Assembly: GCA_050945315.1 (NCBI GenBank)
Contig: JBMNSS010000002.1
Coordinates: 1 to 61,652, forward strand
Direction: 5' to 3'
DNA length: 61,652 nucleotides
DNA from: Limnochordia bacterium
GTDB lineage: Bacteria > Bacillota > Limnochordia > DTU080
A program made the translations under genes and the position numbers. The notes below the pieces were generated by a model that was not told the origin of the DNA, ran no database searches, and worked only from the letters and a program-made list of their open reading frames with translations. Below are positions 4,838-61,652 of this stretch, piece by piece (position 1 is the stretch's first letter; every line of letters starts with the position of its first letter).

Positions 4838-7800
4838 GTGAGACCGGCGGTGGTGCTATTCGTTATTCTCTCATGTGCGCTTGTTCCTGCTGCGGCGGAG
4901 AGCATCGACGGACCCGGTCTGGCCATCATACGTGAGGGTCAGGCGCAAGCAGTGATTGTGATCGTCCCGAATGCTGACGCGCAGACACGAAAGGCTGCCA
5001 ATGTACTGTCGGAGTATCTGTGGAAGTCAACGGGGGCGCGAGTGCCCGTCGTGACTGAAACGGCATCGAGTGAGGGTTATCTTATCTTGGTCGGCGAGAG
5101 CGCGCTCTTAGCGGATCCGCAGATCGCCCTGGCATTACAGGATCTTGATGAACAAGGTTTTCTTATCCGATGTCGTGACGATCGTTTATCCATTGTCGGC
5201 CCTTCGGTCTGGGGTACGTTGCACGGAGTGTATGAGTTTCTGGAGCGGTACGTAGGCGTTCGCTGGCTCTTACCCGGCCCCGACGGCGAGGATGTCCCGC
5301 CTCGTCGCAACGTCACAGTGCCTTGGGGAGAGATCACAGAGGAGCCGGCGTTCTCCTATCGTACGATCAGCCCCGTCAGGGGTTCACCGGACGGCTCCGG
5401 TGCCACGCAATGGCACAATGAATGGGCGCAGCGCAATAAACTTCAGGGAAGCTACAATGATCGGATTCGATTCCATCATAACTTGCACGCTGTCTTTCCT
5501 CCTGAAAAGTACGGGAAGACTCATTGTGAGTTGTACCCCGGCTGCAGGGCCCCGGCATCCGGGCAGGATACGGGGTGGCAGCCGTGTTTTACGGCAAAAG
5601 ACAGCGTTGATGTTGCCGTCGCCGAGATCACCGCCTATTTTGCGGCCCGTCCCCATGAAACCTTCTTTTCGCTGGGTGTAAACGACTCCAGAGGCCACTG
5701 CGAAGCCAATCCTTCCCATCCACATTACCCCGGTCGGTTGAACTCCATCGGCATGGTCGATATGTCAGATATCTACTACGCCTGGGTCAACGAGGTAGTG
5801 GCCAGAGTCCTCGAAGTCTACCCGGATAAATGGTTTGGGCTACTGGCCTACTATGATGTGATGGATCCACCGTCATTTCCGTTGCACCCGCGGGTCATTC
5901 CTTTCATCACCAAGGATCGTATGGCTTGGATCGACACCGACGTTCGCACTGCGGGCCATGAGCAGATGGATGCCTGGAACGAGGTAGCCGCTCAGGTGGC
6001 CTGGTATGACTACATGTACGGCGGAGCTCACTATATCGTGCCGCGTATCTTCAGCCACGCCATGGCAGAGAACTTCCGCTATGCCAGGCGTAATGGCGTG
6101 GTAGGCACGTACACCGAGATGTATCACACGGTCATAGACGGTCCAAAGCCCTGGCTTGCGGCTCGTCTGCAGTGGAACCCGGATCAAGACGTCGATGCTT
6201 TGCTTTGGGAGTGGTATGAGAGGGCCGTGGGACCCGCTGCAGCACATGATTTGAAGGACTTCTACGATCGGTGGGAGCATTTCTGGACGGAACGCATCAA
6301 GGAGTCCTCTTGGTTCAGCGGAGGCAAGGAGCGGACCTATCTGCCGTTTACTGACCAGTCATATTTGCACCTGGTGACTGATGAAGACATCGATGAAAGC
6401 AAGCGATTGCTGGCATCGGTTGTAGCCAAAGCAAAGACACCTGAACAAAAAGCCCGTGCCGAGCTTATCCGGAGGTCTTTCGATTATTGTGAGGCTTCTG
6501 TGATCAGCTATCCCCGGCAGACGTCACCGCCTAGAGACCGCTCCGCCGCCCTCGGCATGTTGGACAATGTGGCCGATACGCTGGAGAAACGATTACAGGC
6601 GGCACAGAGACGCTATGAGCTGGTGGATGAGTTCCGCGCTCTGCCGCTGTTGAGATTTCCGTCCGAGAAGCGAGTCTATCATTGGAGCGGTTGGCCTGTG
6701 GAGGAGTTTTTCCACCTGGTCAATTACGTTCAGGCACATGAAAGCGGCGGAGGCCCCGTGAGCGACGGGGTTAAATCGATGGCCGGGAGCAGTTCTCCCC
6801 AATTGCGAGCCTTTGCTGATCTTCTGTTGCAGGTCTTTGACGGAACATCATCTTTAACGTTGGCCAGTTCTTTTGAGGACCCCATCGAGACCGATCGCCG
6901 ATGGAGTAAATGGATCGTCAGCACCGGGAACATTCGGCGTGTTGAAGATGAGGCATACCGTGGTCGGGCCAGTATGCTCATCGAAGGTATGGCCCGGGGC
7001 GGTCCGCATCAGATTTTCGACGTGCAACCGGGCTTGGTTGCGGTGTCGGTCCGTTACTACGTACCGTCGGGCAGCAAGGAAGGAACGATTCAGCTGACTC
7101 TGCATTTGAAGAACGCGCAAGGAGCCAACCTGGTCAGCTATCGCTCAAGTCCGTCGCAACTGTCATCGCAGGCAGGCCAATGGGCGGGTCTGGGCCTCCT
7201 TGAGGAAGTACCGGGCTACGTGGACGGTCAAAGAGTAGCCAGGGCACAGGTAGTGGTCACGGTTGACGGAGCCTTGAATACGCCCGTCTACGTAGATGAG
7301 GTGCTGGTCTGCCATAGCAAGGCTGCGATCCCCGTTTCGGTCTATGAGCAGTTCATTGAGTTTGCGACCTTGGAGGGCAGTCATCACGGCATTATGGGGA
7401 TGCGTGGCATGTTGGATGCACGGGTGAGGCTGCCCCTTGTCGATCCAGAGGAGATCGAAAGCGTTGAAATACGACTGGACGACGCTCCCGTTTACAACGG
7501 AGCCAGACTGCCCGGGGCGGGCGAGGTCATGATCGATACCCGCAGTCTGTCAGACGGCAGACATGAACTCGCCGCTCGCATCGTCGTCGAAGGGATCGGG
7601 ATTGTGGAAAAATCAGTGGGCTTTGTGACGCGCAACTACTGGATTCTTCACGACCCCTTCGAACCGCCCAAGGAAACGGGTTGGTTTGGAACACTGGATC
7701 GTTCAAGAACGAGTGAGCAATCCGACGGCTGGCAGTATTCCCTTGAACGATCGGAGGAGTTTTGGGGAGACAGCGATCGGAAGGTCCGGATCGGCAATAC

Positions 7801-9462: not shown

Positions 9463-9675
9463 TTCAACCTCCTGATTCCAGCATGAAACCATCAAACTAA
9501 GGTCTGTGTCTTTCTTCATCTTAGCCGCCTAGTGTATAGAAGTCAATATGTGGCAGGTATGGACATATTCCCGGGGGTATATGACTTGACCAGGGACAGA
9601 TGTCTCTGGACGTGATACAATATGACCTGGGAGGTGTGATCTCTGACTGAACGGCAGCCCACACCGGTAAAGATA

Positions 9676-10440
9676 ATGATAGTCGATGATCACGAAGTTG
9701 TGCGGGTAGGATTACGATGCATTCTGGGGCGTGTCGCCGATTTTCAGGTGGTAGCCGAGGCGGCGACTGCCGAGGCGGCGGTGCGGGAAGTAGAGCAGAT
9801 GGCCGCCCCGAGTAAGACGGATCGCGGTCGGCATCATACTACTTCCGGCGTGCCCGATGTCGTCATCATGGATGTACGGATGCCGGGAGGTTCGGGAATC
9901 GAAGCCTGTCGGGCTATCAGACAACGGTTTCCGCGAGTGAAGGTGATCATGCTGACTTCATACAGCGATGATGAGGCCATTCTTGCCTCCGTCATGGCAG
10001 GGGCGGCAGGCTATGTACTCAAGCATATCGCCAGTGAAGAGCTTATCCACGCCATTCGCACGGTGCACCAAGGCGGGTCTTTGCTGGATCCCGAGACGAC
10101 CAAGAAGTTGCTCGAGCACGTGAGAGCCGGACAAAACACATCCGCGGTCGGCAACGGTGAGGAATGGAGTGCGGTCGTGACTCGAGTCAGCGAAGCGGAA
10201 GGAACCGGGGAGGCCATCAATGCCGAACTGCCGGAACCTATCAGTGACCAAGAGCGGAAGATTCTCTCTCTGATTGCCGAGGGGAAAACGAATCGGGAGA
10301 TTGCTGAGCGGATCTATCTTAGCGAAAAAACCGTTCGCAACTATGTGAGCAACATTCTCGGTAAACTGAACCTAAGCAATCGAGCGCATGCTGCAGCCTT
10401 TGCGGTGCGCTATGGCATCGCCTCACCCCGTCGCCACTGA
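9676..10440 (+). CDS. NarL/FixJ (LuxR-type) response regulator
   Basis: REC domain (MIVDDHEVVR...DVVIMDVRMPG...LTSY) plus a C-terminal LuxR HTH (ISDQERKILSLIAEGKTNREIAERIYLSEKTVRNYVSNILGKL). Confidence 0.85.
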   Translation: MIVDDHEVVRVGLRCILGRVADFQVVAEAATAEAAVREVEQMAAPSKTDRGRHHTTSGVPDVVIMDVRMPGGSGIEACRAIRQRFPRVKVIMLTSYSDDEAILASVMAGAAGYVLKHIASEELIHAIRTVHQGGSLLDPETTKKLLEHVRAGQNTSAVGNGEEWSAVVTRVSEAEGTGEAINAELPEPISDQERKILSLIAEGKTNREIAERIYLSEKTVRNYVSNILGKLNLSNRAHAAAFAVRYGIASPRRH

Positions 10441-21949: not shown

Positions 21950-22104
21950 TCCTCGTTTGGAGGCAGGCCCCAACCGGGGCATTATTTGCATCAAGGAGCT
22001 AAGCTGCAGCTCAGCGAAGTGCAAGGCGAAGAGAATCTCTCTTCGCCTGTTCTTTTGATGTTCCCCGTATCAATGTGGATTTCATCTTTGGGAGGGAATG
22101 CATT

Positions 22105-23889
22105 TTGCAGGCTGCTTCGCTCTTGCATGCTCCGTGGCCGCCGTATGTTCAATACGAAGGCTCTGATGGATTGCGTGTGCTGTTGAAAGCCAAACAGGGC
22201 GACATCGCATCGGCTTATGTCATCTACGGTGATCGCTACAAGGATGACATGTCAGGGCGCGCTACACTTAGCAAATTCGGATCAGACGGTATCCATGACT
22301 ATTTCATGGGTCGGTTGAATCTGGTCAGCGGACGTTTCAAGTACGTCTTCTACTTGGAGGCTCGTGACGGACAGGAAGGGTGGTTCTCAGAGGCGGGATG
22401 GAGTCACGATCCGTGGTCAACACGAGTCTTTCAGATGCCGCACGTCGCGGCTTTGCCTGTCTGGGACGGACCCGATTGGGCTCAAGATGCGGTCTGTTAC
22501 CAGGTGTTCCTTGATCGCTTTCGTAACGGTAACCCGCAAAACGATCCACCGAATGTCAGTGATTGGTGCTGTAACCCCTGTTTGAAGACGCGGCTTGGCG
22601 GCGATCTACAGGGGGTTATCGATGCACTGCCCTACCTGGAGGATCTGGGGGTCAGCATGATCTATTTGACTCCGATTTTTCTTGCTCCCTCGGCCCACAA
22701 ATATGATCCCGTCGATTACTATGAGATAGACCCTGAGTTTGGTGATCTGGATACTCTGCGGACCTTGACCGCACAAGCCCATGCACGGAACATGTACGTG
22801 GTGCTGGACGGTGTCTTCAACCATTGCGGGGCAGGCTTTTTCGCGTTTCAGGACGTGCTGAAAAACGGCGAAGCCTCATCCTATAAAGACTGGTTCTGCA
22901 TTCATGAGTATCCCGTGCGCATGTATCCGCCCAACTACGAAACGTTTGGCTCAGCCATAGCGGAGATGCCCAAACTGCGCCTTTCCAATCCGCAGACGGC
23001 TGAGTACTTTCTTGATGTGGCCACCTATTGGGTACGAGAGGCCCGAATCGACGGCTGGCGTCTTGACGTAGCCAATGAGATGGACCTTGAGTTCATGCGT
23101 GAGATGCGACGGAGCCTTCGTGCCATCCATCCGCAAGCCTATATCGTGGGAGAAATCTGGCACCCTGCCGAGCCATGGTTGCGCGGAGACACTCTTGACG
23201 GTGTGACGGCCTACCCTTGGAGAGACGCGGCTTTGGCCTTCTTTTCCGGCTGGCGTTCCGATGCTGCCTGGTTGGACGGTCAATTGACCAAGCATTATAC
23301 CGGGGCGCGATCAGAGGCTTTGCGCTCTTCGCTGAATCTGCTTGGGAGTCATGACACCCCACGTATCCTGGAACTGATGGGCGGCGATCACGAGAAGGCC
23401 AAATTGTTGGCGGCATTTCAATTCGTCTCGCCGGGAATACCTCAGATCTATTACGGCGATGAAGTGGGGATGCGTGGATGGAGCGATCCGGAGTGTCGCC
23501 GAGGTATGACGTGGGATCCGGCCAAGCAGAATCATGATTTGCTAAGCCTCTATAGGCATCTGAGCAAGCTGCGTAAGCAGTATCCGGCGCTGCGTCGGGG
23601 AGGCTTTCGCTCGCTGTGGCATGCTCAAGGGGATCCGTTATATGCCATGCTGCGCACACATGAAAGCGGCAACGTGGTCGGTGTTTTCAACACGGCCTGG
23701 CATGAGCGGGAATTGGAGTTGCCCGGCGGGTGGCTCAGGTCGGACGAATCAATTGAGATGATCAATCTCACGGGTTGGGGCCATCTCATACAGAATGAAC
23801 CAAAAAAAACAGGAGGCGGCGGAATACGTCGAGCAACGATCCCTCTGCGCATGGGCCCTCAGTCTGCGTGTCTTTTGGTCACGAAGTGA
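22105..23889 (+). CDS. GH13 alpha-amylase family enzyme (neopullulanase / cyclomaltodextrinase-like)
   Basis: Conserved GH13 regions DGVFNHCG, GWRLDVANE, VGEIWH and LLGSHDTPR. The TTG 22105 start follows GGAGGGA. Confidence 0.9.
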   Translation: MQAASLLHAPWPPYVQYEGSDGLRVLLKAKQGDIASAYVIYGDRYKDDMSGRATLSKFGSDGIHDYFMGRLNLVSGRFKYVFYLEARDGQEGWFSEAGWSHDPWSTRVFQMPHVAALPVWDGPDWAQDAVCYQVFLDRFRNGNPQNDPPNVSDWCCNPCLKTRLGGDLQGVIDALPYLEDLGVSMIYLTPIFLAPSAHKYDPVDYYEIDPEFGDLDTLRTLTAQAHARNMYVVLDGVFNHCGAGFFAFQDVLKNGEASSYKDWFCIHEYPVRMYPPNYETFGSAIAEMPKLRLSNPQTAEYFLDVATYWVREARIDGWRLDVANEMDLEFMREMRRSLRAIHPQAYIVGEIWHPAEPWLRGDTLDGVTAYPWRDAALAFFSGWRSDAAWLDGQLTKHYTGARSEALRSSLNLLGSHDTPRILELMGGDHEKAKLLAAFQFVSPGIPQIYYGDEVGMRGWSDPECRRGMTWDPAKQNHDLLSLYRHLSKLRKQYPALRRGGFRSLWHAQGDPLYAMLRTHESGNVVGVFNTAWHERELELPGGWLRSDESIEMINLTGWGHLIQNEPKKTGGGGIRRATIPLRMGPQSACLLVTK

Positions 23890-23979
23890 AAGTCTCGTCA
23901 AACAGACGCAGGGACCGAGAGACAAATCCAGAAAGAATCCGAGACAAAGGGTATTCGTCGTAGTGGTCCCGGGTGTGCC

Positions 23980-24176
23980 TTGAGCGCTCGAGATGACTGA
24001 CCTCCCAGGCTCTTTTGGCCTGTGAGCGCAGGTGGTTGAGCGACATGGATCAAGGCAACGGACGGTGATCGCTCGTTAACGTTGCGTTCGTAGCGCTTCA
24101 AGAGTCCTAGAAGGCACATTATTGATGCAGTCCCGGGGAACATCGCGTCTATCGGCCCACCGGTACGGGCGTAGGG
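23980..24176 (+). repeat. ORF-less copy (D) of the iscB-upstream (omega-RNA-like) sequence
   Basis: TTGAGCGCT (23980-23988) equals 61019-61027. The 15-nt run GGATCAAGGCAACGG (24047-24061) is identical to 61211-61225. The collinear tail GGGGAAC..CGGCCCAC..GTAGGG matches GGGGACC..CGCCCAC..GTAGGG at 61267-61312. Confidence 0.5.
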
Positions 24177-24272: not shown

Positions 24273-25199
24273 ATGAGGGGTCCGTGGCGGGCGGGGAACC
24301 GCACAGAAAGGCTGGTGTGTGGCGGTTGGTGCGTCTTATTCCTGGTTGGTTTCTTCTTTTCGGTACCGACCGGGGCGACACCGCGTATGGAGTTGTTGGC
24401 GGCTCTTGGCTATCAAGACAAGCTGCAGTCGCCGTGTGCTCTGATCGGTGCCAATCTGAAACATCTGGGGCACAACTACGAGATAGGGCTTCATCTGTCC
24501 AGCGTGCTGACTCGCCAGGCTGATGACGGATTGGTCAGTATCGGTCTGGAGGGCGAGCTTTGGCGCATGCAACCATTATCATACTATGCTTCACTTCAGG
24601 GCTCGGCCTTGTTGCAGCAACAAGGCGACAAGTTGGGTCGGCGCTATGTGCTGAAGGGACACGGTGTGTTGGGAGGCATGAGAGGAGACGTTTCGGTAGG
24701 ATATGTGGAAAGAAGCATAGCCACCTTTCCCTGGGAGCATGAGGATGTAGGCAACGGAATCATAGAGGGGAAGCCTTATGTTTTTTTGCAGGCTACAATG
24801 TCGGCCAATGTAGTCCATGAATGGGGTCTGAAGTGGAGCCAAGACGTGATCTTTCGACGCCACGTCGGGGAATCGGCGTACAGACTGGGGCTTACCACCG
24901 GCCCCGAGATAAGGTTAGGGCCGGGCTCTTTAACCGCCCAGGGGGGCGTCGTCTTGGGGGCTGATCGTATGAGGCCCATGGCTCAGGTTCGATTTGCCGT
25001 TCGGGATCCGTTTGAGGGCAAGACAGAGCTGGTGCTGTCAGCTGCGACCACGTCTGTGGAGCGCGACGTTCCTTTGTATCAGGCGTGGTATTCGCTTGAG
25101 CACGATAGGTGGCGCTTTCAGACTCTGTTGCGTCTGGAGCACCCCAATGACGGTAAGGCCGCCCCCACCGTTTATGTCTCCATACAACCGAAGATCTGA
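24273..25199 (+). CDS. hypothetical secreted/membrane beta-rich protein
   Basis: ATG lies 6 nt after GGGAGG. There is an N-terminal hydrophobic segment followed by alternating-polarity strands. I recognised no family. Confidence 0.5.
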   Translation: MRGPWRAGNRTERLVCGGWCVLFLVGFFFSVPTGATPRMELLAALGYQDKLQSPCALIGANLKHLGHNYEIGLHLSSVLTRQADDGLVSIGLEGELWRMQPLSYYASLQGSALLQQQGDKLGRRYVLKGHGVLGGMRGDVSVGYVERSIATFPWEHEDVGNGIIEGKPYVFLQATMSANVVHEWGLKWSQDVIFRRHVGESAYRLGLTTGPEIRLGPGSLTAQGGVVLGADRMRPMAQVRFAVRDPFEGKTELVLSAATTSVERDVPLYQAWYSLEHDRWRFQTLLRLEHPNDGKAAPTVYVSIQPKI

Positions 25200-38666: not shown

Positions 38667-38815
38667 TGCTGAGTCACCTCCACACGATGTAATCCTATGG
38701 TCGGTCTTTGTGCTTTAGAATCGCTCAGTTCCACCCGATTCGCTCACCTACTCATACACACCAAGGATCCGTCATATGCTTTAAGTGCTTGTGTGTGCCG
38801 GGAGCGGGTGAGTCG

Positions 38816-40108
38816 ATGCTGACCGCAGTTTATCGGGCGTATCTTAGGAGAATCTCGGGTAGGCGGGCCAACGGGCAGCGTGGTGATTGGACCATCCGAA
38901 TACTCTTGATGATCATGCTTCCGCTGATGCTGTTCACGGTGATCAACCATCCGTGGTTCCAGCCTCTGTTGGGGCACATGGCGCGTGAGACCGCTCGTTT
39001 GACCCCGTCGGTAGGCGGGTGGCTGAGCATGGATGCAGTGCGGGGAAAGGCGATTCTGCAGGCCGCTTTGCCGACCGTGGCGGAGGTGGGGCGGGATCCG
39101 ATCCCCAATTTCGGTTGGCGGCACACGTTGCGCTCATGGTTGTATGTAGTCCTCGGTTACGATATGTCACAACCCCGGACGCTGTTTTTGGCGGCCGTGC
39201 CCGGTCTGCATCTGCCACCTCCGGAGGAGACGGTGGAGTTGGCAGTGGTTCAGCCCAAAACGGAACCGATCGCAGAACCGGAGCCGGCAGCACATGATGT
39301 GGCCGCCTCGCCTCGATCGCCAGGCCGGGATTGGGGCCGGGAACCTTTGGTATTGATCTTCCATACACATACTTCGGAGATGTATGCCACCGGGGACGAT
39401 GCGCCGAAGTCGCCTCAGCATTATCATATGTTCAATACGACCGATACGGGAATAGTACGGGTCGGTGAGGCTTTGGCTCGGACCTTGAGCGAACGTCACG
39501 GCATTCCTGTTCTTCACTCCAAGGCCATCCACGATTTTCCCAACTACGCGCAGTCGTATCAGCGATCCGCCACTACCGTGCAACGGATTCTGAGTAAGCA
39601 TCCTTCCATTCGTCTGGTGCTTGATGTGCATCGCGACGGTGCGCAAAACGTGTCGTTTGTACGGCAAGTGGGCTCTCAGAGCGTGGCTCAGGTCATGGTA
39701 GTCGTCACCAAACCCATTAGCTATTCCGAGGCATTGCATCCGCGCTGGGCGGAGAATGTGCAGGTCGCCAACCTCATGAAAAAGACCATGGAAGCGATGT
39801 ATCCCGGTTTGCTCAGGCCCTATGCTGTCGTGGGAAGGAACCGCTATAATCAGCATCTGCATCCACATATGCTGTTACTGGAGGTCGGCAATTACATAGA
39901 CGACGAGAAGTATGCCCTGCGCAGCGCGGTATTGATGGCCGATGTGGTGGCCCGAGTCCTCAGTGAACTGCCGGCTGTCTCATTGAGGCCGTCGACGAGC
40001 GCGAGTCAGGTCACCTCTTCCGCAGTATCAGGAACGACGCAGGAAGCGCGCAGCGGCGTACAACCGCCCTTGCCACAGACACCCGCGCCGACGGTGCTCA
40101 AACGCTGA
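38816..40108 (+). CDS. spoIIP: stage II sporulation protein P
   Basis: IFHTHTSEMY and LDVHRDG motifs, with an N-terminal TM helix. The start is set at ATG 38816. Confidence 0.8.
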   Translation: MLTAVYRAYLRRISGRRANGQRGDWTIRILLMIMLPLMLFTVINHPWFQPLLGHMARETARLTPSVGGWLSMDAVRGKAILQAALPTVAEVGRDPIPNFGWRHTLRSWLYVVLGYDMSQPRTLFLAAVPGLHLPPPEETVELAVVQPKTEPIAEPEPAAHDVAASPRSPGRDWGREPLVLIFHTHTSEMYATGDDAPKSPQHYHMFNTTDTGIVRVGEALARTLSERHGIPVLHSKAIHDFPNYAQSYQRSATTVQRILSKHPSIRLVLDVHRDGAQNVSFVRQVGSQSVAQVMVVVTKPISYSEALHPRWAENVQVANLMKKTMEAMYPGLLRPYAVVGRNRYNQHLHPHMLLLEVGNYIDDEKYALRSAVLMADVVARVLSELPAVSLRPSTSASQVTSSAVSGTTQEARSGVQPPLPQTPAPTVLKR

Positions 40109-43718: not shown

Positions 43719-44874
43719 GGAACCCACCTTTGAGTTCGGAAGCGCCGGTATTTATGTGCATGTCCCTTTCTGCCTGCGCAAGTGCCTTTATTGTGATTTC
43801 GTCTCCTATCCGGCTGTGCCGGATGAGATGAACGCCTATTTTAAGGCCCTCGTCCGTGAGATTCAGATTGTCGCCGACCAGCTGTCTCAAGTGTCGGTGA
43901 CGAGTGCTTATCTGGGCGGGGGCACCCCCTCTGCTTTGCCTACCGCCATGCTATGCGGCATTCTTTCTCATATCCGAGCTGCCTTCAACCTCGACTCGCA
44001 TGCGGAGATAAGTGCCGAGATCAACCCCGGGACCCTGGAAGCGGTCGATTTGGCGGCAGTCGCCGCCGCGGGAGTCAATCGCTTAAGCATCGGCGTGCAG
44101 AGCCTGGATGACGGCTTGTTGCAGCGCCTGGGGCGTGTACATACTGCCGGAGAGGCCGTGGACAGCATTCGAGCGGCCCGGGCAGCCGGTTTTCAGAATA
44201 TCAACATTGATCTCATGTTTGGTCTGCCGGGCCAGAGCTTGAGTGATCTCAGGCAGACCGTTGACCGAGTCATCGAGCTTGCTCCGGAGCACATCTCGTG
44301 TTACAGCCTCATCGTCGAGCCGACGACCCCATTGGCCAAGCAACTGGAGAAACGAGAGCTTGAGCTTCCCGATGAGGATCTGGAACTGGCCATGTACGAG
44401 TGGGTCATGGCCAGGCTGCACGCAGCGGGATATGAACACTATGAGATCTCCAGTTGGGCGCGGCCGGGATATCGAAGTCGACATAACGAGCTATACTGGC
44501 GTAACGAATGGTACCGAGGCTTGGGGCCGGCCGCTCATTCGCACTGGGATCGTCAACGTTGGGCCAATGCTCCTACCGTCAAAGCCTACAGTCAGGCGCT
44601 TGACCAAGGAGTGCTCCCCGTGGTGGAGCGATGTCAGCTCTCTGCGGACGATGAGATGGATGAGACAATGATCATGGGGTTGCGTTTGTTGGAGGGCGTG
44701 AGCGAAGAGAGGTTTCGGACTCGTTACGGACGAGGGCTTGAGGCGACGTATGGGCCGGAGATCGTGCGTTTGGTCCGGCTCGGTCTTGTCGAGTACGGTT
44801 CTTCTCTCAGGCTGACGCGTAAAGGGTTGCTCATAGCCAACCAGGTATTTGCCGCTTTCTTGCGTTCACCTTGA
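43711..44874 (+). CDS. hemW: radical SAM heme chaperone HemW (HemN-like)
   Basis: The CxxxCxxC motif is present as [10 protein letters not shown], and the position after lepA is conserved. Confidence 0.9.
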
Positions 44875-44900
44875 CAAAGCAGGGCAGCCGATGCTATGTT
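44871..44900 (+). promoter_or_regulatory. sigmaA-like promoter of the hrcA heat-shock operon
   Basis: TTGACA (44871-44876, overlapping the hemW stop), an 18-nt spacer, then TATGTT (44895-44900), directly upstream of CIRCE. Confidence 0.55.
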
Positions 44901-44911
44901 GGGATTGGTGA

Positions 44912-44938
44912 TTAGCACTCTTCTTGCTTGAGTGCTAA
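44912..44938 (+). promoter_or_regulatory. CIRCE operator (HrcA binding site)
   Basis: TTAGCACTC-ttcttgctt-GAGTGCTAA is a perfect match to the consensus TTAGCACTC-N9-GAGTGCTAA. Confidence 0.9.
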
Positions 44939-45280
44939 CGGACTGAAGGGTGAGCACTGGCCCTAACCCAAGCTTAATCAGTCTGAGGGCCTCCGGCACG
45001 TCGTTACGAGCGAATGACAGCGGCCCGCAGTGTCACCTGTGACAACCGCTCGATAGCGCCGGTGAGGAGAGCGTCACCACTGTCAGGTGTGTAGTATCAT
45101 AATCAGCTGCGCGAGGATGACCCGGGGTGTTTCAGCACACTTCCGTTATCCCGCCGACCAACGTCATGTGTTTGAAGGAAGATGTTGCCGCTGATTATCC
45201 GGTGCCGGAGCGCCGTGATGATCGCGAGAGCGATTCGGCAGGATCGCACCTTTCAGGGTCCTTCAGGGAGCACGACATAT
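44939..45280 (+). mobile_element. IscB-less derivative (copy A) of the iscB/omega-RNA element: omega-RNA-like scaffold plus decayed first iscB codons, inside the hrcA leader
   Basis: Collinear blocks shared with 61092-61406. These include CAGTGTCAC (45028-45036 = 61227-61235), GGGTGTTT at the iscB start context (45125-45132 vs 61310-61317), and LKEDVAADY vs LKKGKAAVY. The frame from GTG 45127 stops at 45282. Confidence 0.6.
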
Positions 45281-45300
45281 GATTCCGGTGGTGAAGCAGG

Positions 45301-46314
45301 GTGGATAGGAGGAAAGAGACTATCCTGCGGGCTATCACCGACGACTACATCGAAACGGCCGAACCGGTAGGATCGCGGACCATCGCCCGCAAGTATGGTC
45401 TGGGCTTAAGTCCCGCTACAATTCGCAATGAAATGGCTGATTTGGAGGAGTTGGGCTACCTGCACCAGCCGCACACTTCAGCCGGGCGCATCCCTTCTGA
45501 CAAAGGATACCGCTTCTATGTGGATGTGCTCATACCTGATCCCAAAATCTCTGAAGAAGAAGAACACTTTGTCCGAGAGAAAATGGTTGTCTCGCAGGTG
45601 GCCGCGGACGAGGTTGTTCGACGGGCCTTGCGCGTGTTGGGGCTCATGACGCACTATGCCGCGGTTGCCATTACGCCCAGTCTCATGGACAGTGTCGTAC
45701 GTGCGGTGCGCTTTGTGCCCATCGATGATCGTCACGTCTTGGTCGTCGTGGTCACGGATCCGGGACTTGTGCAAAACCGCATCGTGGAAGTAGATCGTGT
45801 GGCACCGGAGGTGTTGGCTGAAGCCGGTCAACGTATCAGTGCCAGGCTGATGGGCAGCGCTCTGCGTGATGTGACTGTCGACATCTGCAGAGAGCTCGCT
45901 GACGAGGTGCCCGACCCGAGTCTTTATCCGGTTCTGATGGAGATGCTGATGGAGGGACTTACCGACACCTCCGAAAAGGTGCTGGTCGACGGAAGCATCA
46001 ACCTCATGGATCATCCTGAATTCCGGCAGATCGCTCGCGCCAAGGCTTTGCTTGCGGCCTTGGAAGAACGGGAGCGTCTTCATGAGGTCGTCAGCATGAG
46101 TGTGGATACCGGTGTCGTTATAGGCGAGGAGAACGTCTACGAAGGGGTCCGGGATTGCAGCGTTGTAACTGCGACCTACGGCGGCGGAGGCCGGATCGTA
46201 GGGGCAGTGGGTGTGATCGGACCCACTCGCATGGAGTACGCCCGGGCGATTGCCGTGGTTCAGCTTGTGGCTGACATGCTTTCGGAAATGCTCAGGGGCA
46301 CCTTGTCGGCTTAG
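45301..46314 (+). CDS. hrcA: heat-inducible transcription repressor HrcA
   Basis: N-terminus ILRAITDDYIETAEPVGSRTIARKYGLGLSPATIRNEMADLEELGYL, located at the head of the dnaK operon. Confidence 0.9.
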   Translation: MDRRKETILRAITDDYIETAEPVGSRTIARKYGLGLSPATIRNEMADLEELGYLHQPHTSAGRIPSDKGYRFYVDVLIPDPKISEEEEHFVREKMVVSQVAADEVVRRALRVLGLMTHYAAVAITPSLMDSVVRAVRFVPIDDRHVLVVVVTDPGLVQNRIVEVDRVAPEVLAEAGQRISARLMGSALRDVTVDICRELADEVPDPSLYPVLMEMLMEGLTDTSEKVLVDGSINLMDHPEFRQIARAKALLAALEERERLHEVVSMSVDTGVVIGEENVYEGVRDCSVVTATYGGGGRIVGAVGVIGPTRMEYARAIAVVQLVADMLSEMLRGTLSA

Positions 46315-46358
46315 ACGTCATATTGGCTCAGTGGATTCCTCTAAGATGAAGAGCGTGA

Positions 46359-46388
46359 GAGCGTGCATGAGCATATTCATGCACGCTC
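46359..46388 (+). other. perfect 12-bp stem-loop in the hrcA-grpE spacer
   Basis: GAGCGTGCATGA (46359-46370), loop gcatat, then TCATGCACGCTC (46377-46388). No U-tract follows. Confidence 0.5.
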
Positions 46389-46432
46389 ATGGCAATGAAG
46401 ACTTGTGCGTTCGTTAGGGAGGTCGTTACGAC

Positions 46433-47098
46433 TTGGTGGGTTCAGACGTGCCCGAGCCGGAAGCGGGCAGGGAGGCGGTTTGTGACCAGGCTGAGGCTGT
46501 CGAACCAGTAGAGGCAGCTGAAGACAAGGCAATAGAAGAAGCCGCCGAAGACAAGACAGTCGAAGAAGAGGCTGCTGAAGACAAGACAGTCGAAGAAGAG
46601 GCCGCGGAAGCTGAGGAAACCGACAGTGACCGAGAGGCCGAACTGGCTGAGAAGCAGCGGCAGATAGAAGCCTTGGTCGTTCAGAACATGCGGTTGCGTG
46701 CGGATTTTGAGAACTTCCGCCGTCGTAATCAACAGAAGCTTGAGGAATACTCCCAAAGGGGAGCCGAGCGTCTGATCAATAAGCTGTTGCCTGTCTTGGA
46801 CGATTTTGACCGAGCTTTGGAGGCGTCCTCCGGTACCCGAGCGACGGAGGGTCTTGCCCAGGGTGTCAGCATGGTCAGACAGGCACTGTTGGACGCACTC
46901 TATTCCGAAGGACTGTCGCCGATAGAGAGTGTAGGCTTGGCCTTTGATCCCAACTACCACGAGGCGGTGGCGCTCGAGGAGTGTGCTGAGGGCAGACTAT
47001 ACGTCGTTGAAGAGTATCAAAAAGGCTACATTTTTGGTGGTCGCGTGCTGCGTCCCGCCAAGGTCAAGGTGGGACCTTCAGCTGAGCCCTTGGCTTGA
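46433..47098 (+). CDS. grpE: nucleotide exchange factor GrpE
   Basis: RLRADFENFRRR motif and a conserved C-terminal beta domain. The TTG start lies 10 nt after AGGGAGG. The acidic N-terminal region is repetitive. Confidence 0.9.
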   Translation: MVGSDVPEPEAGREAVCDQAEAVEPVEAAEDKAIEEAAEDKTVEEEAAEDKTVEEEAAEAEETDSDREAELAEKQRQIEALVVQNMRLRADFENFRRRNQQKLEEYSQRGAERLINKLLPVLDDFDRALEASSGTRATEGLAQGVSMVRQALLDALYSEGLSPIESVGLAFDPNYHEAVALEECAEGRLYVVEEYQKGYIFGGRVLRPAKVKVGPSAEPLA

Positions 47099-47135
47099 TC
47101 GACCTTCTCAGACTACGGTAGTCTTTGAAGGTCGA
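47099..47135 (+). terminator. two-tier hairpin immediately after the grpE stop (possible attenuator or partial terminator)
   Basis: TCGACCTTC (47099-47107) pairs with GAAGGTCGA (47127-47135), enclosing AGACT (47110-47114) paired with AGTCT (47120-47124). The U-tract is weak. Confidence 0.45.
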
Positions 47136-47169
47136 TCGTGCTCGGTGACGGCCGCACGTTCACTTGTTC

Positions 47170-47527
47170 TTGAGTGCTTCGAGCACCACGTTACGGGCGA
47201 GCGACATAGGCATTCCGGGGCACTTCGTCGGCTCCGGATCTTGCGGCGCCGGTTAGACTCGACCGATGGGGGCAACGGCAGCGTCACCTGCAGACCGCTC
47301 AGAAAAACCTGCGAGAAGACCGCTATCGCCGGAAGGCCCGTGGCGCCTTCACAGGCTAGCGGGCGTGGGTCCGTGGTGTTTCAGCGCGCCCTGTCATCCC
47401 GTCACGCAAGTCAAGCGTTGGAACGGAGAAGTTGCCGCCGATCATCGGGTGCCGGAACGTCGGCTTCACGCAGGCGCGATCTTTAGGGGGCGCACCATCC
47501 GTGGTGCTTCCCGGACAACCAGACAAA
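47170..47527 (+). mobile_element. second IscB-less derivative (copy B) of the iscB/omega-RNA element, in the grpE-dnaK spacer
   Basis: ACGTTACGGGCGAGCGACATAGGCA (47188-47212) matches 61134-61157. GGCAACGG..CAGCGTCAC (47271-47287) matches 61218-61235. It is alignable to copy A over about 330 nt (GGTGTTTCAGC, GTTGCCGC and GGTGCCGGA are identical). Confidence 0.6.
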
Positions 47528-47598
47528 CTAGCAGTCATGCATGGTGTCGGTTGACGATCTTGATGTCGACGGATACCACGAGAGTGGAGGAAGGATAT

Positions 47599-49458
47599 AT
47601 GAGCAAGGTGGTCGGTATTGATTTAGGCACCACCAATTCGGTTATCGCGGTCATGGAAGGCGGGGAACCGACGGTTATCCCCAACGCTGAGGGTAGCCGG
47701 ACGACACCGTCGGTGGTAGCCTTCAGTCAAAAAGACGGCGGTCAACCGGCGGAACGCCTTGTTGGTGCGGTGGCCAAGCGACAGGCGGTCAGCAACCCTG
47801 ATCGCACGATTCTGTCGATCAAAAGGCAAATGGGTACCGAGTACAAGGTTCGCATAGACGGTCGCAATTATACTCCGCCGGAAATCGCGGCCATGATCCT
47901 GCAGAAGCTTCGGGCGGATGCGGAAGAGTACTTGGGAGAAAAGATCACGAAAGCCGTGATCACAGTTCCCGCCTACTTCACGGATGCTCAACGGCAGGCC
48001 ACCAAGGATGCGGGCACCATTGCCGGTCTTGAGGTCTTGCGTATTATCAACGAGCCTACCGCTGCGGCTCTCGCCTACGGTGCAGAGCGGGACGAAGATC
48101 ATACCGTCTTGGTATTTGACCTTGGCGGGGGAACGTTTGACGTTTCCATTCTGGAACTCGGCGACGGAGTTTACGAAGTCAAGGCGACCAGCGGGAACAA
48201 CCGCTTGGGCGGCGATGACTTCGATCAGCGAATCATAGACTATCTGGTTAGCGAGTTCGAGAAGACCACCGGTGTTGATCTTAGAAAAGATCGTATGGCT
48301 ATGCAGCGGGTGAAGGAAGCAGCTGAGAAGGCCAAGATAGAGTTGTCCGGAATCACACAGACCACGATCAACCTGCCTTTCATCGCCATGAAACCGGATG
48401 GTCCGCTGAATATGGATATCACTTTGACGCGGGCCAAGTTCGAGGCCTTGACGAAAGACTTGGTTGAGGCCACCATGGGACCAACCAAGCGGGCCTTGGC
48501 TGACGCGGGGCTGAAACCCCATGACATTGACCGTGTGATTCTGGTCGGCGGCTCTACTCGTATTCCGGCCGTTCAAGAAGCCATTCGTCAGCTCATAGGC
48601 AAGGACCCTCACAAGGGTGTGAATCCTGACGAAGTGGTGGCTGTGGGAGCGGCCATTCAGGCAGGAATACTGGCCGGTGAAGTCAAAGACATCGTACTTC
48701 TGGATGTCACTCCGTTGTCGTTGGGTATCGAGACGTTGGGCGGAGTCTTCACGAAATTGATTGAGCGCAACACGACGATACCGACCCAGACCACAGAAAT
48801 CTTTTCCACGGCCGCAGACAACCAGACCGCAGTCGATATTCACGTGCTGCAAGGCGAGCGGTCGATGGCTGCGGATAACGTCACCTTGGGACGTTTCCAG
48901 CTGAGCGGTATCTTACCCGCTCCCAGGGGAGTGCCGAAAATAGAGGTTTCTTTTGATATAGACGTCAATGGTATCGTTAAGGTCTCCGCCAAGGATCTCG
49001 GTACGGGAAAGGCGCAGGAGATCACGCTTACCGCACGCACAGGCCTCAGCGAACAGGACATTGACCGCCTGGTTAAAGAGGCGGAGGCTCACGCCGAAGA
49101 TGACCAACGGCGCAAGGAGCTGATTGAGGCCCGTAACGAGGCAGATGCGCTCATCTACTCCGCGGATCGTACTCTCAATGAAATGGGAGACAAGGTGACT
49201 GATCAAGAACGCGAAGAGATAACCGAGGCACAAGAGGCTCTGAAGGCGGTCATGGGTGGCGAAGACATTCAGGCCATTAAAGACAAACAAGGTGACTTGA
49301 GTTCAGCGCTGTATAAGGTTACTTCTCGCGCCTATGAAGCGGGGCATGCATCTGAGTCGAGCGACGGCGACGATGATCGAGCCAGTGAGCCGACCGTGGA
49401 TGCCGATTTCACGGTGGATGACGATTTTACGGTAGATGACGACAAAAGCTGGTCGTAA
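47599..49458 (+). CDS. dnaK: molecular chaperone DnaK (Hsp70)
   Basis: [14 protein letters not shown] after GGAGGAAGG, followed by full Hsp70 motifs. The track ORF start at 47266 is an in-frame artefact running through the spacer. Confidence 0.95.
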
Positions 49459-60743: not shown

Positions 60744-60938
60744 GTGGCAGAGATTCGTGTCGGTAAGAATGAATCCCTCGATCGCGCTTTGCGACGCTTC
60801 AAGCAGACTTGTCGCAGATCAGGAGTGCTGGCCGATGCTCGTAAGCACGAGGTTTATGACAAACCGAGCGTAAAAAGAAAGAAAAAGGCAGAAGCCGCGC
60901 GCAAACGTGCTAGGAGAAAAACTCGCAGAGATTCCTGA
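60744..60938 (+). CDS. rpsU: 30S ribosomal protein S21
   Basis: The 64-aa product begins [19 protein letters not shown] (after the GTG initiator) and has a basic C-terminus. Confidence 0.9.
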
Positions 60939-60969
60939 CTGGCGAGTGCCGGGTAAGCGATGTGATGGC

Positions 60970-61005
60970 AGGCCACCCTTTTTCTGTACGGGTGGCCTTT
61001 CTGTC
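60970..61005 (+). terminator. intrinsic terminator after rpsU
   Basis: AGGCCACCC (60970-60978) pairs with GGGTGGCCT (60990-60998), followed by TTCTGTCT. Confidence 0.7.
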
Positions 61006-61018
61006 TAGGGACGGACAG

Positions 61019-61311
61019 TTGAGCGCTTGACTTGATCAATGTTTTCGACCATCCGTGGTCTGCGAGCATTGATCATGTACGACGACAGTCGTAAGCTCAA
61101 CCAGCCTCAGCCAGGACCTTACGTCATCGGGCTACGTTACGGACGAATGTATAGGCACTTCGGGATGCTTCCCCCAGTTCCGAACTCTGTGGTGAGTGAT
61201 CAAACAGCACGGATCAAGGCAACGGGCAGTGTCACTCACATTTGAAACCGTCCGATAACATTGGCGAGGGGACCCATTACCGCCCACATAGGTGAGTACG
61301 CCTTGAGTAGG
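61019..61311 (+). ncRNA. candidate IscB omega-RNA (HEARO-type) scaffold; boundaries approximate
   Basis: The region lies directly upstream of the iscB-type ORF and has no credible ORF. Nested helices: 61033-61041/61067-61075, 61047-61051/61056-61060, 61078-61083/61088-61093 and 61192-61199/61232-61239, with an alternative 61234-61239/61292-61297 pairing. The sequence is repeated elsewhere in the window. Confidence 0.5.
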
Positions 61312-61652
61312 GTGTTTGTCCTGGACACCAACAAGAAACCTTTACATCCAACACATCCGGCAAGGGCACGCATACTTTTGAAGAAGGGTAAGGCGGCTGT
61401 ATACCGCATGTACCCCTTTACAATCATCCTTAAGTATGCGGTAGACACTCAGGTTAAATCCCAACTGCGTCTAAAGATCGACCCCGGCAGCAGAACCACC
61501 GGAATGGCTGTAGTTGACGACAAGACGAAGAAAGTGATTCTCGCAGCTGAGCTTAATCACCGAGGTCACATCATAAAACAAAACCTGGACAAGAGACGTG
61601 CTATTCGTCGATCCAGACGTAACAGAAAGACACGTTACAGACAGGCCAGGTT
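61312..61652 (+). CDS. iscB: IscB/IsrB-type OMEGA RNA-guided nuclease, N-terminal 113 codons only (runs off the window)
   Basis: My own translation from GTG 61312 is MFVLDTNKKPLHPTHPARARILLKKGKAAVYRMYPFTIILKYAVDTQVKSQLRLKIDPGSRTTGMAVVDDKTKKVILAAELNHRGHIIKQNLDKRRAIRRSRRNRKTRYRQAR. This shows a PLMP-type N-domain, RuvC-I (IDPGS) and an Arg-rich bridge helix (RRxRR). It is not in the ORF track because there is no stop in the window. Confidence 0.8.
   Translation, partial: MFVLDTNKKPLHPTHPARARILLKKGKAAVYRMYPFTIILKYAVDTQVKSQLRLKIDPGSRTTGMAVVDDKTKKVILAAELNHRGHIIKQNLDKRRAIRRSRRNRKTRYRQAR

Follow-up and report, generated by a model that had tools for sequence, protein, structure and literature searches.

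The leader of the hrcA operon

The hrcA operon of the Limnochordia bacterium studied here raises a simple question: what occupies the 362 nt that separate the CIRCE operator from the hrcA start? In the window, that is, the whole analysed stretch of 61,652 nt, the initial annotation had described this spacer as an omega-RNA-like element without iscB, open to three readings: a decayed insertion, a guide RNA acting in trans with the intact IscB, or a leader exapted for the control of hrcA.

The native parts of the leader were found exactly where that annotation had placed them. A predicted sigma-A-type promoter (TTGACA, 18 nt, TG-n-TATGTT; 44871-44900, forward strand) is the sole promoter-like site within 44700-47700 and is followed by a perfect CIRCE, TTAGCACTC-N9-GAGTGCTAA (44912-44938), the single match in the window, with 0 mismatches and a chance expectation of 0. 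The hrcA gene starts with the GTG at 45301, and a 51-codon frame (45127-45282) lies between the operator and the gene. The succession of a sigma-A promoter, an inverted repeat and hrcA-grpE-dnaK is that of a CIRCE/HrcA-controlled operon leader. Judging from the one predicted promoter and from the terminator prediction, which returned none, the spacer is presumably transcribed as the leader of hrcA. The 51-codon frame was considered as a real gene for a 51-aa protein and rejected: it has no Pfam match and is absent from the related copy upstream of dnaK described below.

Three relatives, with HrcA proteins 91%, 81% and 59% identical (L085 [LFTP01000324.1, GCA_001513395.1], L086 and L088, respectively), were recovered by protein search and their contigs were fetched; a scan of a genome collection with HrcA yielded no relative above 50% identity. 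The promoter is conserved in all three relatives, and both CIRCE arms are invariant across 4/4 aligned genomes. The distance from CIRCE to the hrcA start is 51 nt in L086 and ~60 nt in L088, which bears out the initial impression that 362 nt is unusually long, and ~440 nt in L085. The relatives free of the element carry a short leader, not the same leader. The native proximal hrcA leader with the ribosome-binding region (45265-45300, forward strand), which opens with AGGGAG, a candidate flanking motif discussed below, aligns with the entire CIRCE-to-start spacer of L086 and L088. The preceding ~326 nt (44939-45264, forward strand) are absent from both genomes, which present clean empty sites. 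The 5' boundary of this insertion is uncertain by ~12 nt: its conserved start, TGAGCAC, is found at 44951, and the 9-12 nt separating CIRCE from the conserved TGAGC start are missing at the empty sites. CIRCE itself is native and lies outside the insertion. L085, which belongs to the same species as another genome in our set (L170), carries a longer and more complete element (9562-9949) at exactly the same site, and the two hrcA copies are probably orthologous, i.e., the product of one insertion. The 362-nt spacer consists of a ~326-nt non-autonomous, internally deleted IscB-type element of the IS200/IS605 (ISC) kind and 36 nt of native leader.

The insertion derives from an IscB-type element

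The window reaches into a resident IscB element. Its intact omega-RNA scaffold (61019-61311, forward strand) opens with TTGAGC, which forms the closing helix P1 with GCTCAA, and includes the only match of the Rfam HEARO model (RF02033) in the window (61055-61280; 84.8 bits, gathering score 83). The iscB gene (61312-61652, forward strand) is cut by the window end and is completed by L090, a 2.3-kb contig from a metagenome scan that overlaps the window end at 100% identity and encodes a 429-aa product with Pfam RRXRR and HNH domains. This protein matches solved IscB structures, such as OgeuIscB (7UTN/7XHT), with an E value of 5e-27; a search with the N-terminal IscB fragment had listed only short matches (<200 residues), none of them complete. 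Downstream of iscB, L090 carries a transposon end of ~85 nt with the hairpin GTACCAtccTGGTAC.

Direct Smith-Waterman alignment of the hrcA leader (44939-45300) with the region of the intact omega-RNA (61019-61420) was no better than that of dinucleotide shuffles (z 1.5), so homology was sought through a paralogue, profiles and a covariance model. The hrcA leader is clearly related to the grpE-dnaK spacer of the window (local alignment, z 24; nhmmer, E 5e-16 over the full length) and to the L085 copy (nhmmer, E 1.6e-7). Combined in one profile, the hrcA and dnaK leaders match the intact omega-RNA at 61131-61297 (nhmmer, E 8.8e-7), which is also matched by the grpE-dnaK spacer (nhmmer, E 1.5e-8 to 1.6e-10, and E 1e-8 for the copy at 47081-47510) and by the L085 copy (nhmmer, E 8e-18). 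Furthermore, R1, a covariance model of the 143-position omega-RNA core built from 24 IscB-linked sequences, recovers three places in the window, namely the intact copy with 116.9 bits, the dnaK copy (at 47186-47327) with 33.8 bits and E 1.6e-6, and the hrcA copy with 26.4 bits and E 1.2e-4; nothing else falls below E 0.9. The hrcA match (44999-45078, forward strand) retains the long-range closing helix, with every pair, as well as the flanking conserved strands, and 23 nt stand in for both internal hairpins (81 model positions); P1 is possibly retained as well. The Rfam HEARO model found no match with E<=10 in the hrcA leader (44850-45350), where its gathering threshold (83 bits) is not reached, nor any at permissive thresholds in the dnaK and L085 leaders.

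Descent from a bona fide omega-RNA is supported by the profile, by R1 and by the L085 copy, in agreement with the annotation of an IscB-less, omega-RNA-derived spacer on the transcribed strand between CIRCE and hrcA. Neither of the two outcomes that had been named as refuting for this locus occurred: the profile and model scores, unlike the direct alignment, beat chance, and the relatives without the element have a short leader of their own. Three of the five blocks through which the leader had been aligned with the region upstream of iscB (45002-45018, 45028-45036 and 45044-45057) hold: all three fall inside the R1 match, and MAFFT aligns them in the same way. The gap of ~75 nt postulated from these blocks is real and corresponds in the R1 alignment to the two missing internal core hairpins. 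A resemblance between the CIRCE segment CTTCTTGCTTGAGTGCT and CTTGTTCTTGAGTGCT of the dnaK copy was judged coincidental: CIRCE is native, and the segment in the dnaK copy goes back to the P1 and hairpin region of the omega-RNA.

The remaining two blocks concern the 3' part of the element. A profile of this part, built from the three ORF-less copies (hrcA, dnaK and L085), matches, among 170 loci, only L090 at 1524-1641 (E 5.5e-5), a segment that runs from the final ~10 codons of iscB through its stop codon into the far transposon end; no match was found to the 5' codons of iscB, and no further relatives of the element 3' end were present in the 170 loci. The block TTGAAGGAAGATGTTGCCGCTGATTATCCG, which had been read as LKEDVAADY against LKKGKAAVY of the IscB N-terminus, aligns instead with ...GACTAAAATGAAAAGCCGCCGACCATCCCGG at the iscB 3' end, and a coding remnant of the IscB N-terminus in this part was ruled out. 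The block around the GTG fares better: GGGGTGTTT (45124-45132, forward strand), common to the dnaK copy, is collinear with GGGTGTTT at 61309-61316 and is likely what remains, as a stub, of the ribosome-binding site and GTG start of iscB, a plausible assignment that spans only 8 nt. The 8-nt GGGTGTTT may be the sole leftover of the iscB start in the element, and the stub opens the non-conserved 51-codon frame. Within 45150-45264 (forward strand), a stub of the last iscB codons and the stop region precedes the far transposon end, whose subterminal hairpin (45246-45261, GCACCTTTCAGGGTCC) is degenerate in the hrcA copy; perfect end hairpins occur in the intact element (GTACCAtccTGGTAC) as well as in the dnaK and L085 copies (GCACCAtc[c/t]gTGGTGC).

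The order of parts is, then, an omega-RNA end, an iscB start stub, a stub of the last codons and a far end with a subterminal hairpin. Both ends of the hrcA element are homologous to the ends of the gene-bearing element, and what follows the omega-RNA remnant is the 51-codon frame and then hrcA, rather than an iscB ORF. Since its 3' third consists of the last iscB codons and the far end, the element is internally deleted and ORF-less (PATE/MITE-like). The hrcA, dnaK and L085 copies share this architecture, including the same internal deletion, and align end to end, which indicates descent from one internally deleted, non-autonomous derivative.

Sister copies and insertion sites

The second, younger ORF-less copy (47081-47510, forward strand) lies upstream of dnaK, inserted in the last codons of grpE, so that the present grpE stop (47096-47098) is element sequence. 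This position emerges from a comparison with the GrpE C-termini of L085 and L086, and joining position 47080 to 47511 restores, without any duplication, an in-frame GrpE end, VGPSPDNQTN-stop, where L085 has VGPAPENPTN-stop. In this copy the 5' three-way junction (47083-47165) is well formed and the core (47186-47327) degraded; the end hairpin is GCACCATCCGTGGTGC (47492-47507). The grpE-dnaK spacer measures ~500 nt in the window, 67 nt in L085, 69 nt in L086 and 12 nt in L088, and is 49-69 nt across L085, L086 and L171, all three of which have empty sites at this position; the dnaK copy is thus specific to the lineage of the window. A third, heavily eroded remnant (23979-24075, forward strand), recognizable only in its 5' domain and central hairpin, gave collinear local alignments with the L085 5' domain (z 8.5) and with the intact omega-RNA at 61207-61237 (z 6.5), and is not detected by R1. 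The sequence ACCATCCGTGGT at 38946, which falls within a 466-codon ORF, is probably a chance match.

The IscB omega-RNA scaffold is positioned at the transposon end with the guide just outside, so that omega-RNA biogenesis needs read-through transcription from outside, and IscB elements tend to point the same way as the gene upstream of them (Meers et al. 2023, bioRxiv 10.1101/2023.03.14.532601). According to the same study, PATEs often carry omega-RNAs, for which action in trans has been proposed. ISC elements are described as non-autonomous, with subterminal hairpins; they do not duplicate their targets and insert at short, specific sites, namely GT|GG, GT|RA and N|ATGA (Kapitonov et al. 2016, PMC4810608). 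Nothing of use emerged from a literature search for orphan or MITE-like IscB elements. In the window, 4/4 copies are sense-oriented behind co-directional sequences, these being the hrcA promoter with CIRCE, grpE, a GH13-like gene and rpsU. This placement, downstream of promoters or in operons, fits the published dependence of IscB omega-RNAs on outside transcription; such sites, downstream of a strong promoter or within an operon, would be those where these elements arise or persist. The right flanks (AAGGAG, AGGGAG, CCGGAC and AAGGAT) have GGA at positions 3-5 in 4/4 cases, representing three independent sites, and GGA is, on these three flanks, a candidate target or transposon-adjacent motif.

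The distribution of the copies shows the course of events. The element inserted directly 3' of CIRCE, in the same orientation as hrcA, after the split from the 81% relative and, the two hrcA copies being probably orthologous, in the common ancestor with the 91% relative. Deletions in the lineage of the window have since removed the two hairpins of the core along with most of the 5' domain. The sister copy inserted later into the grpE end, upstream of dnaK. Having landed in an actively transcribed, permissive spot and lost any omega-RNA capacity, the hrcA element would now be carried passively in a ~390-nt hrcA 5' UTR under HrcA/CIRCE control, tolerated and drifting neutrally.

Preservation and possible roles of the element

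Preservation was scored against a 51-pair consensus structure derived from 31 IscB-linked omega-RNAs, in which 86-100% of the pairs are canonical. The intact copy of the window retains 88% canonical pairs (R1, 116.9 bits). The corresponding values are 67% for the dnaK copy (33.8 bits), 65% for the L085 hrcA copy (16.8 bits), 37% for the hrcA copy of the window (19/51 pairs, with 31 deleted; 26.4 bits) and 31% for the 23979 remnant. The initial statement that most of the scaffold is kept was therefore not upheld, as 19/51 pairs remain, and the hrcA element lacks the conserved HEARO secondary structure, i.e., the core helices and the 5' junction. When applied to 57 other IscB-linked loci, one of which (L146) was in the training set, R1 matched just upstream of the gene in 55, with a median score near 130 bits, and only one full-length match scored below the ORF-less copies. 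IscB-linked relatives score 74-130 bits with the Rfam HEARO model.

All three ORF-less copies carry mutations in near-invariant motifs such as AUAACAUUGnCGAGG. In the dnaK, L085 and intact copies the 5' three-way junction, which holds the transposon-end hairpin, pairs well, and at 7 of its pairs both sides have changed; most of the junction has been deleted from the hrcA copy. The ORF-less copies are mutually 60-65% identical, and the scaffold sub-lineage of the hrcA element is only ~60% identical to the resident omega-RNA. The hrcA copies of the window and L085 share 62-65% identity, close to the level of four-fold-degenerate sites between the two genomes (59-78%), compared with 81-87% for the native flanks; this neutrality comparison involves one pair, the species of L085 and L170 being the sole independent carrier of the hrcA copy. 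The two copies bear different, lineage-specific deletions. Single-sequence folding energies are unremarkable (z -1.8 and -0.95). Such a pattern of preservation is what neutral decay predicts, and nothing in it points to a maintained function. The hrcA copy might conceivably adopt a minimal fold in which all pairs of the core closing helix, and possibly P1, are kept.

Of the three initial readings, the decayed insertion is the one supported by these data. It is very likely that the CIRCE-hrcA stretch is an eroded, gene-less IscB-type insertion, transcribed passively and devoid of omega-RNA or regulatory function; what the element is and how it came to this site follow from the homologies and the empty sites, and it is the absence of a present function that we infer. 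Were the stretch instead a native long leader resembling an omega-RNA by chance, the failure of the direct alignment to exceed shuffles (z 1.5) would be expected, but not the empty sites in the relatives, the significant profile and covariance-model matches, the correspondence of both ends to those of a complete IscB element or the paralogous copy interrupting grpE, and this explanation is refuted. A guide role in trans would have the leader processed into a heat-shock-induced omega-RNA for the IscB at 61312, with the right arm of CIRCE as the guide. The genome does encode an apparently intact IscB, the copy is in sense orientation downstream of a strong promoter, as omega-RNA biogenesis requires, its core closing helix is intact, and trans action of PATE omega-RNAs has a published precedent as a proposal (bioRxiv 10.1101/2023.03.14.532601). 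However, deletions have taken 31/51 pairs, among them those of the two core hairpins and of most of the 5' domain, the copy scores 26.4 bits against ~130 for gene-linked omega-RNAs and draws no HEARO match at E<=10, near-invariant motifs are mutated, its sub-lineage has diverged to ~60% identity with the resident omega-RNA, and such a guide, identical to part of the CIRCE of the cell itself, would be self-targeting. We accordingly rate a trans-guide role as very unlikely for the hrcA copy, and as only slightly less unlikely for the dnaK copy.

Exaptation of the leader, with the inserted RNA modulating the stability or translation of the hrcA mRNA, for instance as a structured 5' UTR or a thermosensor, finds some encouragement in the persistence of the insertion in two lineages, in a UTR made about four-fold longer (from ~80 to ~390 nt), which could plausibly affect expression, and in the hrcA start codon, which is GTG in both carriers and ATG in both non-carriers. 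It is nevertheless unlikely, given that the orthologous copies have diverged at the neutral level and by lineage-specific deletions, that the fold is not unusually stable (z -1.8), that the conserved native ribosome-binding segment is intact downstream, and that no omega-RNA-like match turned up when the hrcA-dnaK region was searched in 83 further loci (0.9 Mb in total). The hrcA copy could also be a still-mobile PATE, one on which a Y1 transposase provided in trans would continue to act: the ORF-less family has moved since the split from L085, which lacks the dnaK copy, and in the dnaK and L085 copies the end hairpins are still perfect and the 5' junction pairs well. The hrcA copy itself, however, has a degenerate end hairpin (GCACCTTTCAGGGTCC versus GCACCATCCGTGGTGC) and has lost its 5'-domain hairpins, so that continuing mobility is distinctly improbable. 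A broader proposal, by which the ORF-less family is an active, or recently active, omega-RNA-bearing PATE steered into 5' UTRs and operon junctions by NNGGA (often AAGGAG-like) and read-through, with the truncated hrcA copy perhaps still acting on hrcA expression, as a structured heat-shock-inducible UTR or a minimal IscB-contacting RNA, we hold to be decidedly unlikely.

Taken as an eroded insertion, the element is a further case of the known ORF-less IS200/IS605/ISC derivatives with a guide-RNA relic, and no new mechanism is involved. Like PATEs (Meers et al. 2023, bioRxiv 10.1101/2023.03.14.532601), it has both transposon ends, no protein gene and an omega-RNA scaffold at one end, occurs in several copies per genome and inserted cleanly, without evident target duplication. 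Unlike the published PATEs, which are mainly of the TnpB type and from Geobacillus, the family in the window is IscB-derived, keeps stubs of the iscB start and stop, and has a degraded omega-RNA core in every copy seen. As in ISC transposons (PMC4810608), the parent element comprises an omega-RNA (HEARO), iscB and an end hairpin, the hairpins are subterminal, though degenerate in the hrcA copy, the boundaries can be defined from empty sites, and the GGA of the right flank recalls GT|GG and GT|RA; in contrast to them, nearly the whole of iscB is deleted and the target motif is a candidate drawn from three independent flanks. The element shares with HEARO (RF02033) homologous sequence and collinear conserved strands (CGUUAC..GAAU, CAGUGUCAC, AACCGCUCGAUAGC), but fails the Rfam model, is without most helices and has no adjoining IscB gene. 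With domesticated OMEGA systems, such as TldR with its guide RNA or the Cas9 tracrRNA, it has in common that a regulatory region of the host contains RNA descended from a transposon guide; unlike them, it is without a partner protein gene, conservation and an intact scaffold, and nothing indicates domestication.

Judged by its sequence, the element appears to have met an ordinary fate for an IscB-type mobile element, with no sign of having been put to use. The odd 362-nt leader is transposon debris, and to annotate it as a functional omega-RNA, a small protein gene or a regulatory RNA would be a mistake. The locus offers a clean natural example of the decay of IscB elements, in which two relatives allow the filled and empty sites to be dated: loss of the gene comes first and erosion of the omega-RNA core second, the transposon ends being the most durable part. 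The candidate GGA flank motif and the replacement of the GrpE C-terminus are small, testable by-products of these comparisons.

Right flanks of the insertions

The right flanks of four copies were compared: AGGGAG for the hrcA-leader copy (window 45265), CCGGAC for the dnaK-upstream copy (window 47511), AAGGAG for the hrcA-leader copy of L085, a relative with 91% HrcA identity (L085 9950), and AAGGAT for the intact IscB element, read from L090, the 2.3-kb metagenome contig that completes it (L090 1638). All four share GGA at positions 3-5. Judging from these flanks right after the element, the GGA could be a target or transposon-adjacent motif. It also resembles a Shine-Dalgarno sequence.

Insertion at the end of grpE and the eroded remnant

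The dnaK-upstream copy (window 47081-47510) is inserted in the last codons of grpE, so that the ending ...PxPENPT(N/S) of GrpE in relatives is replaced in the window by ...VGPSAEPLA, with the stop codon itself provided by element sequence. A long ORF of 730 codons from 47266 is an artefact that reads through into dnaK, the true start of which is ATG 47599. The N-terminal region of GrpE has an acidic AAEDK(A/T)(I/V)EE repeat; it is encoded by three tandem units, imperfect and 27-30 nt long, at window 46507-46604 in the 5' part of the gene.

The third remnant of the same family is strongly eroded and lies at window 23979-24075, flanked by a GH13-like gene (22075-23889) on one side and an unknown gene of 308 aa (24273-25199) on the other. 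It can be recognised only by its 5' domain and central hairpin; a far transposon end was not found.

Surroundings of the hrcA leader and of the intact element

The hrcA start codon is GTG in both carriers of the leader insertion (window 45301; L085 10001) and ATG in both genomes without it (10001 in both L086 and L088, with 81% and 59% HrcA identity). Three independent short-read contigs of the same organism (L082, L083 and L084) all terminate within CIRCE, the HrcA operator (window 44916-44937), probably because the assembly broke at the palindrome and not because strains differ there.

The intact IscB element is directly preceded, in the same orientation, by rpsU (ribosomal protein S21, window 60744-60938) and then a terminator-like hairpin (about 60962-60995; region 60744-61018). 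The 12-nt sequence ACCATCCGTGGT, present both in the 5' loop of the omega-RNA (61048) and in the end hairpin of the dnaK-upstream copy (47494), also occurs exactly at window 38946-38957 within a 466-codon ORF (38708-40108), there probably by chance. In the metagenome locus L139, the IscB-linked omega-RNA core match is followed, about 2.4 kb downstream, by a second one (4886-5025, 63.5 bits), which may represent another element or a standalone omega-RNA.
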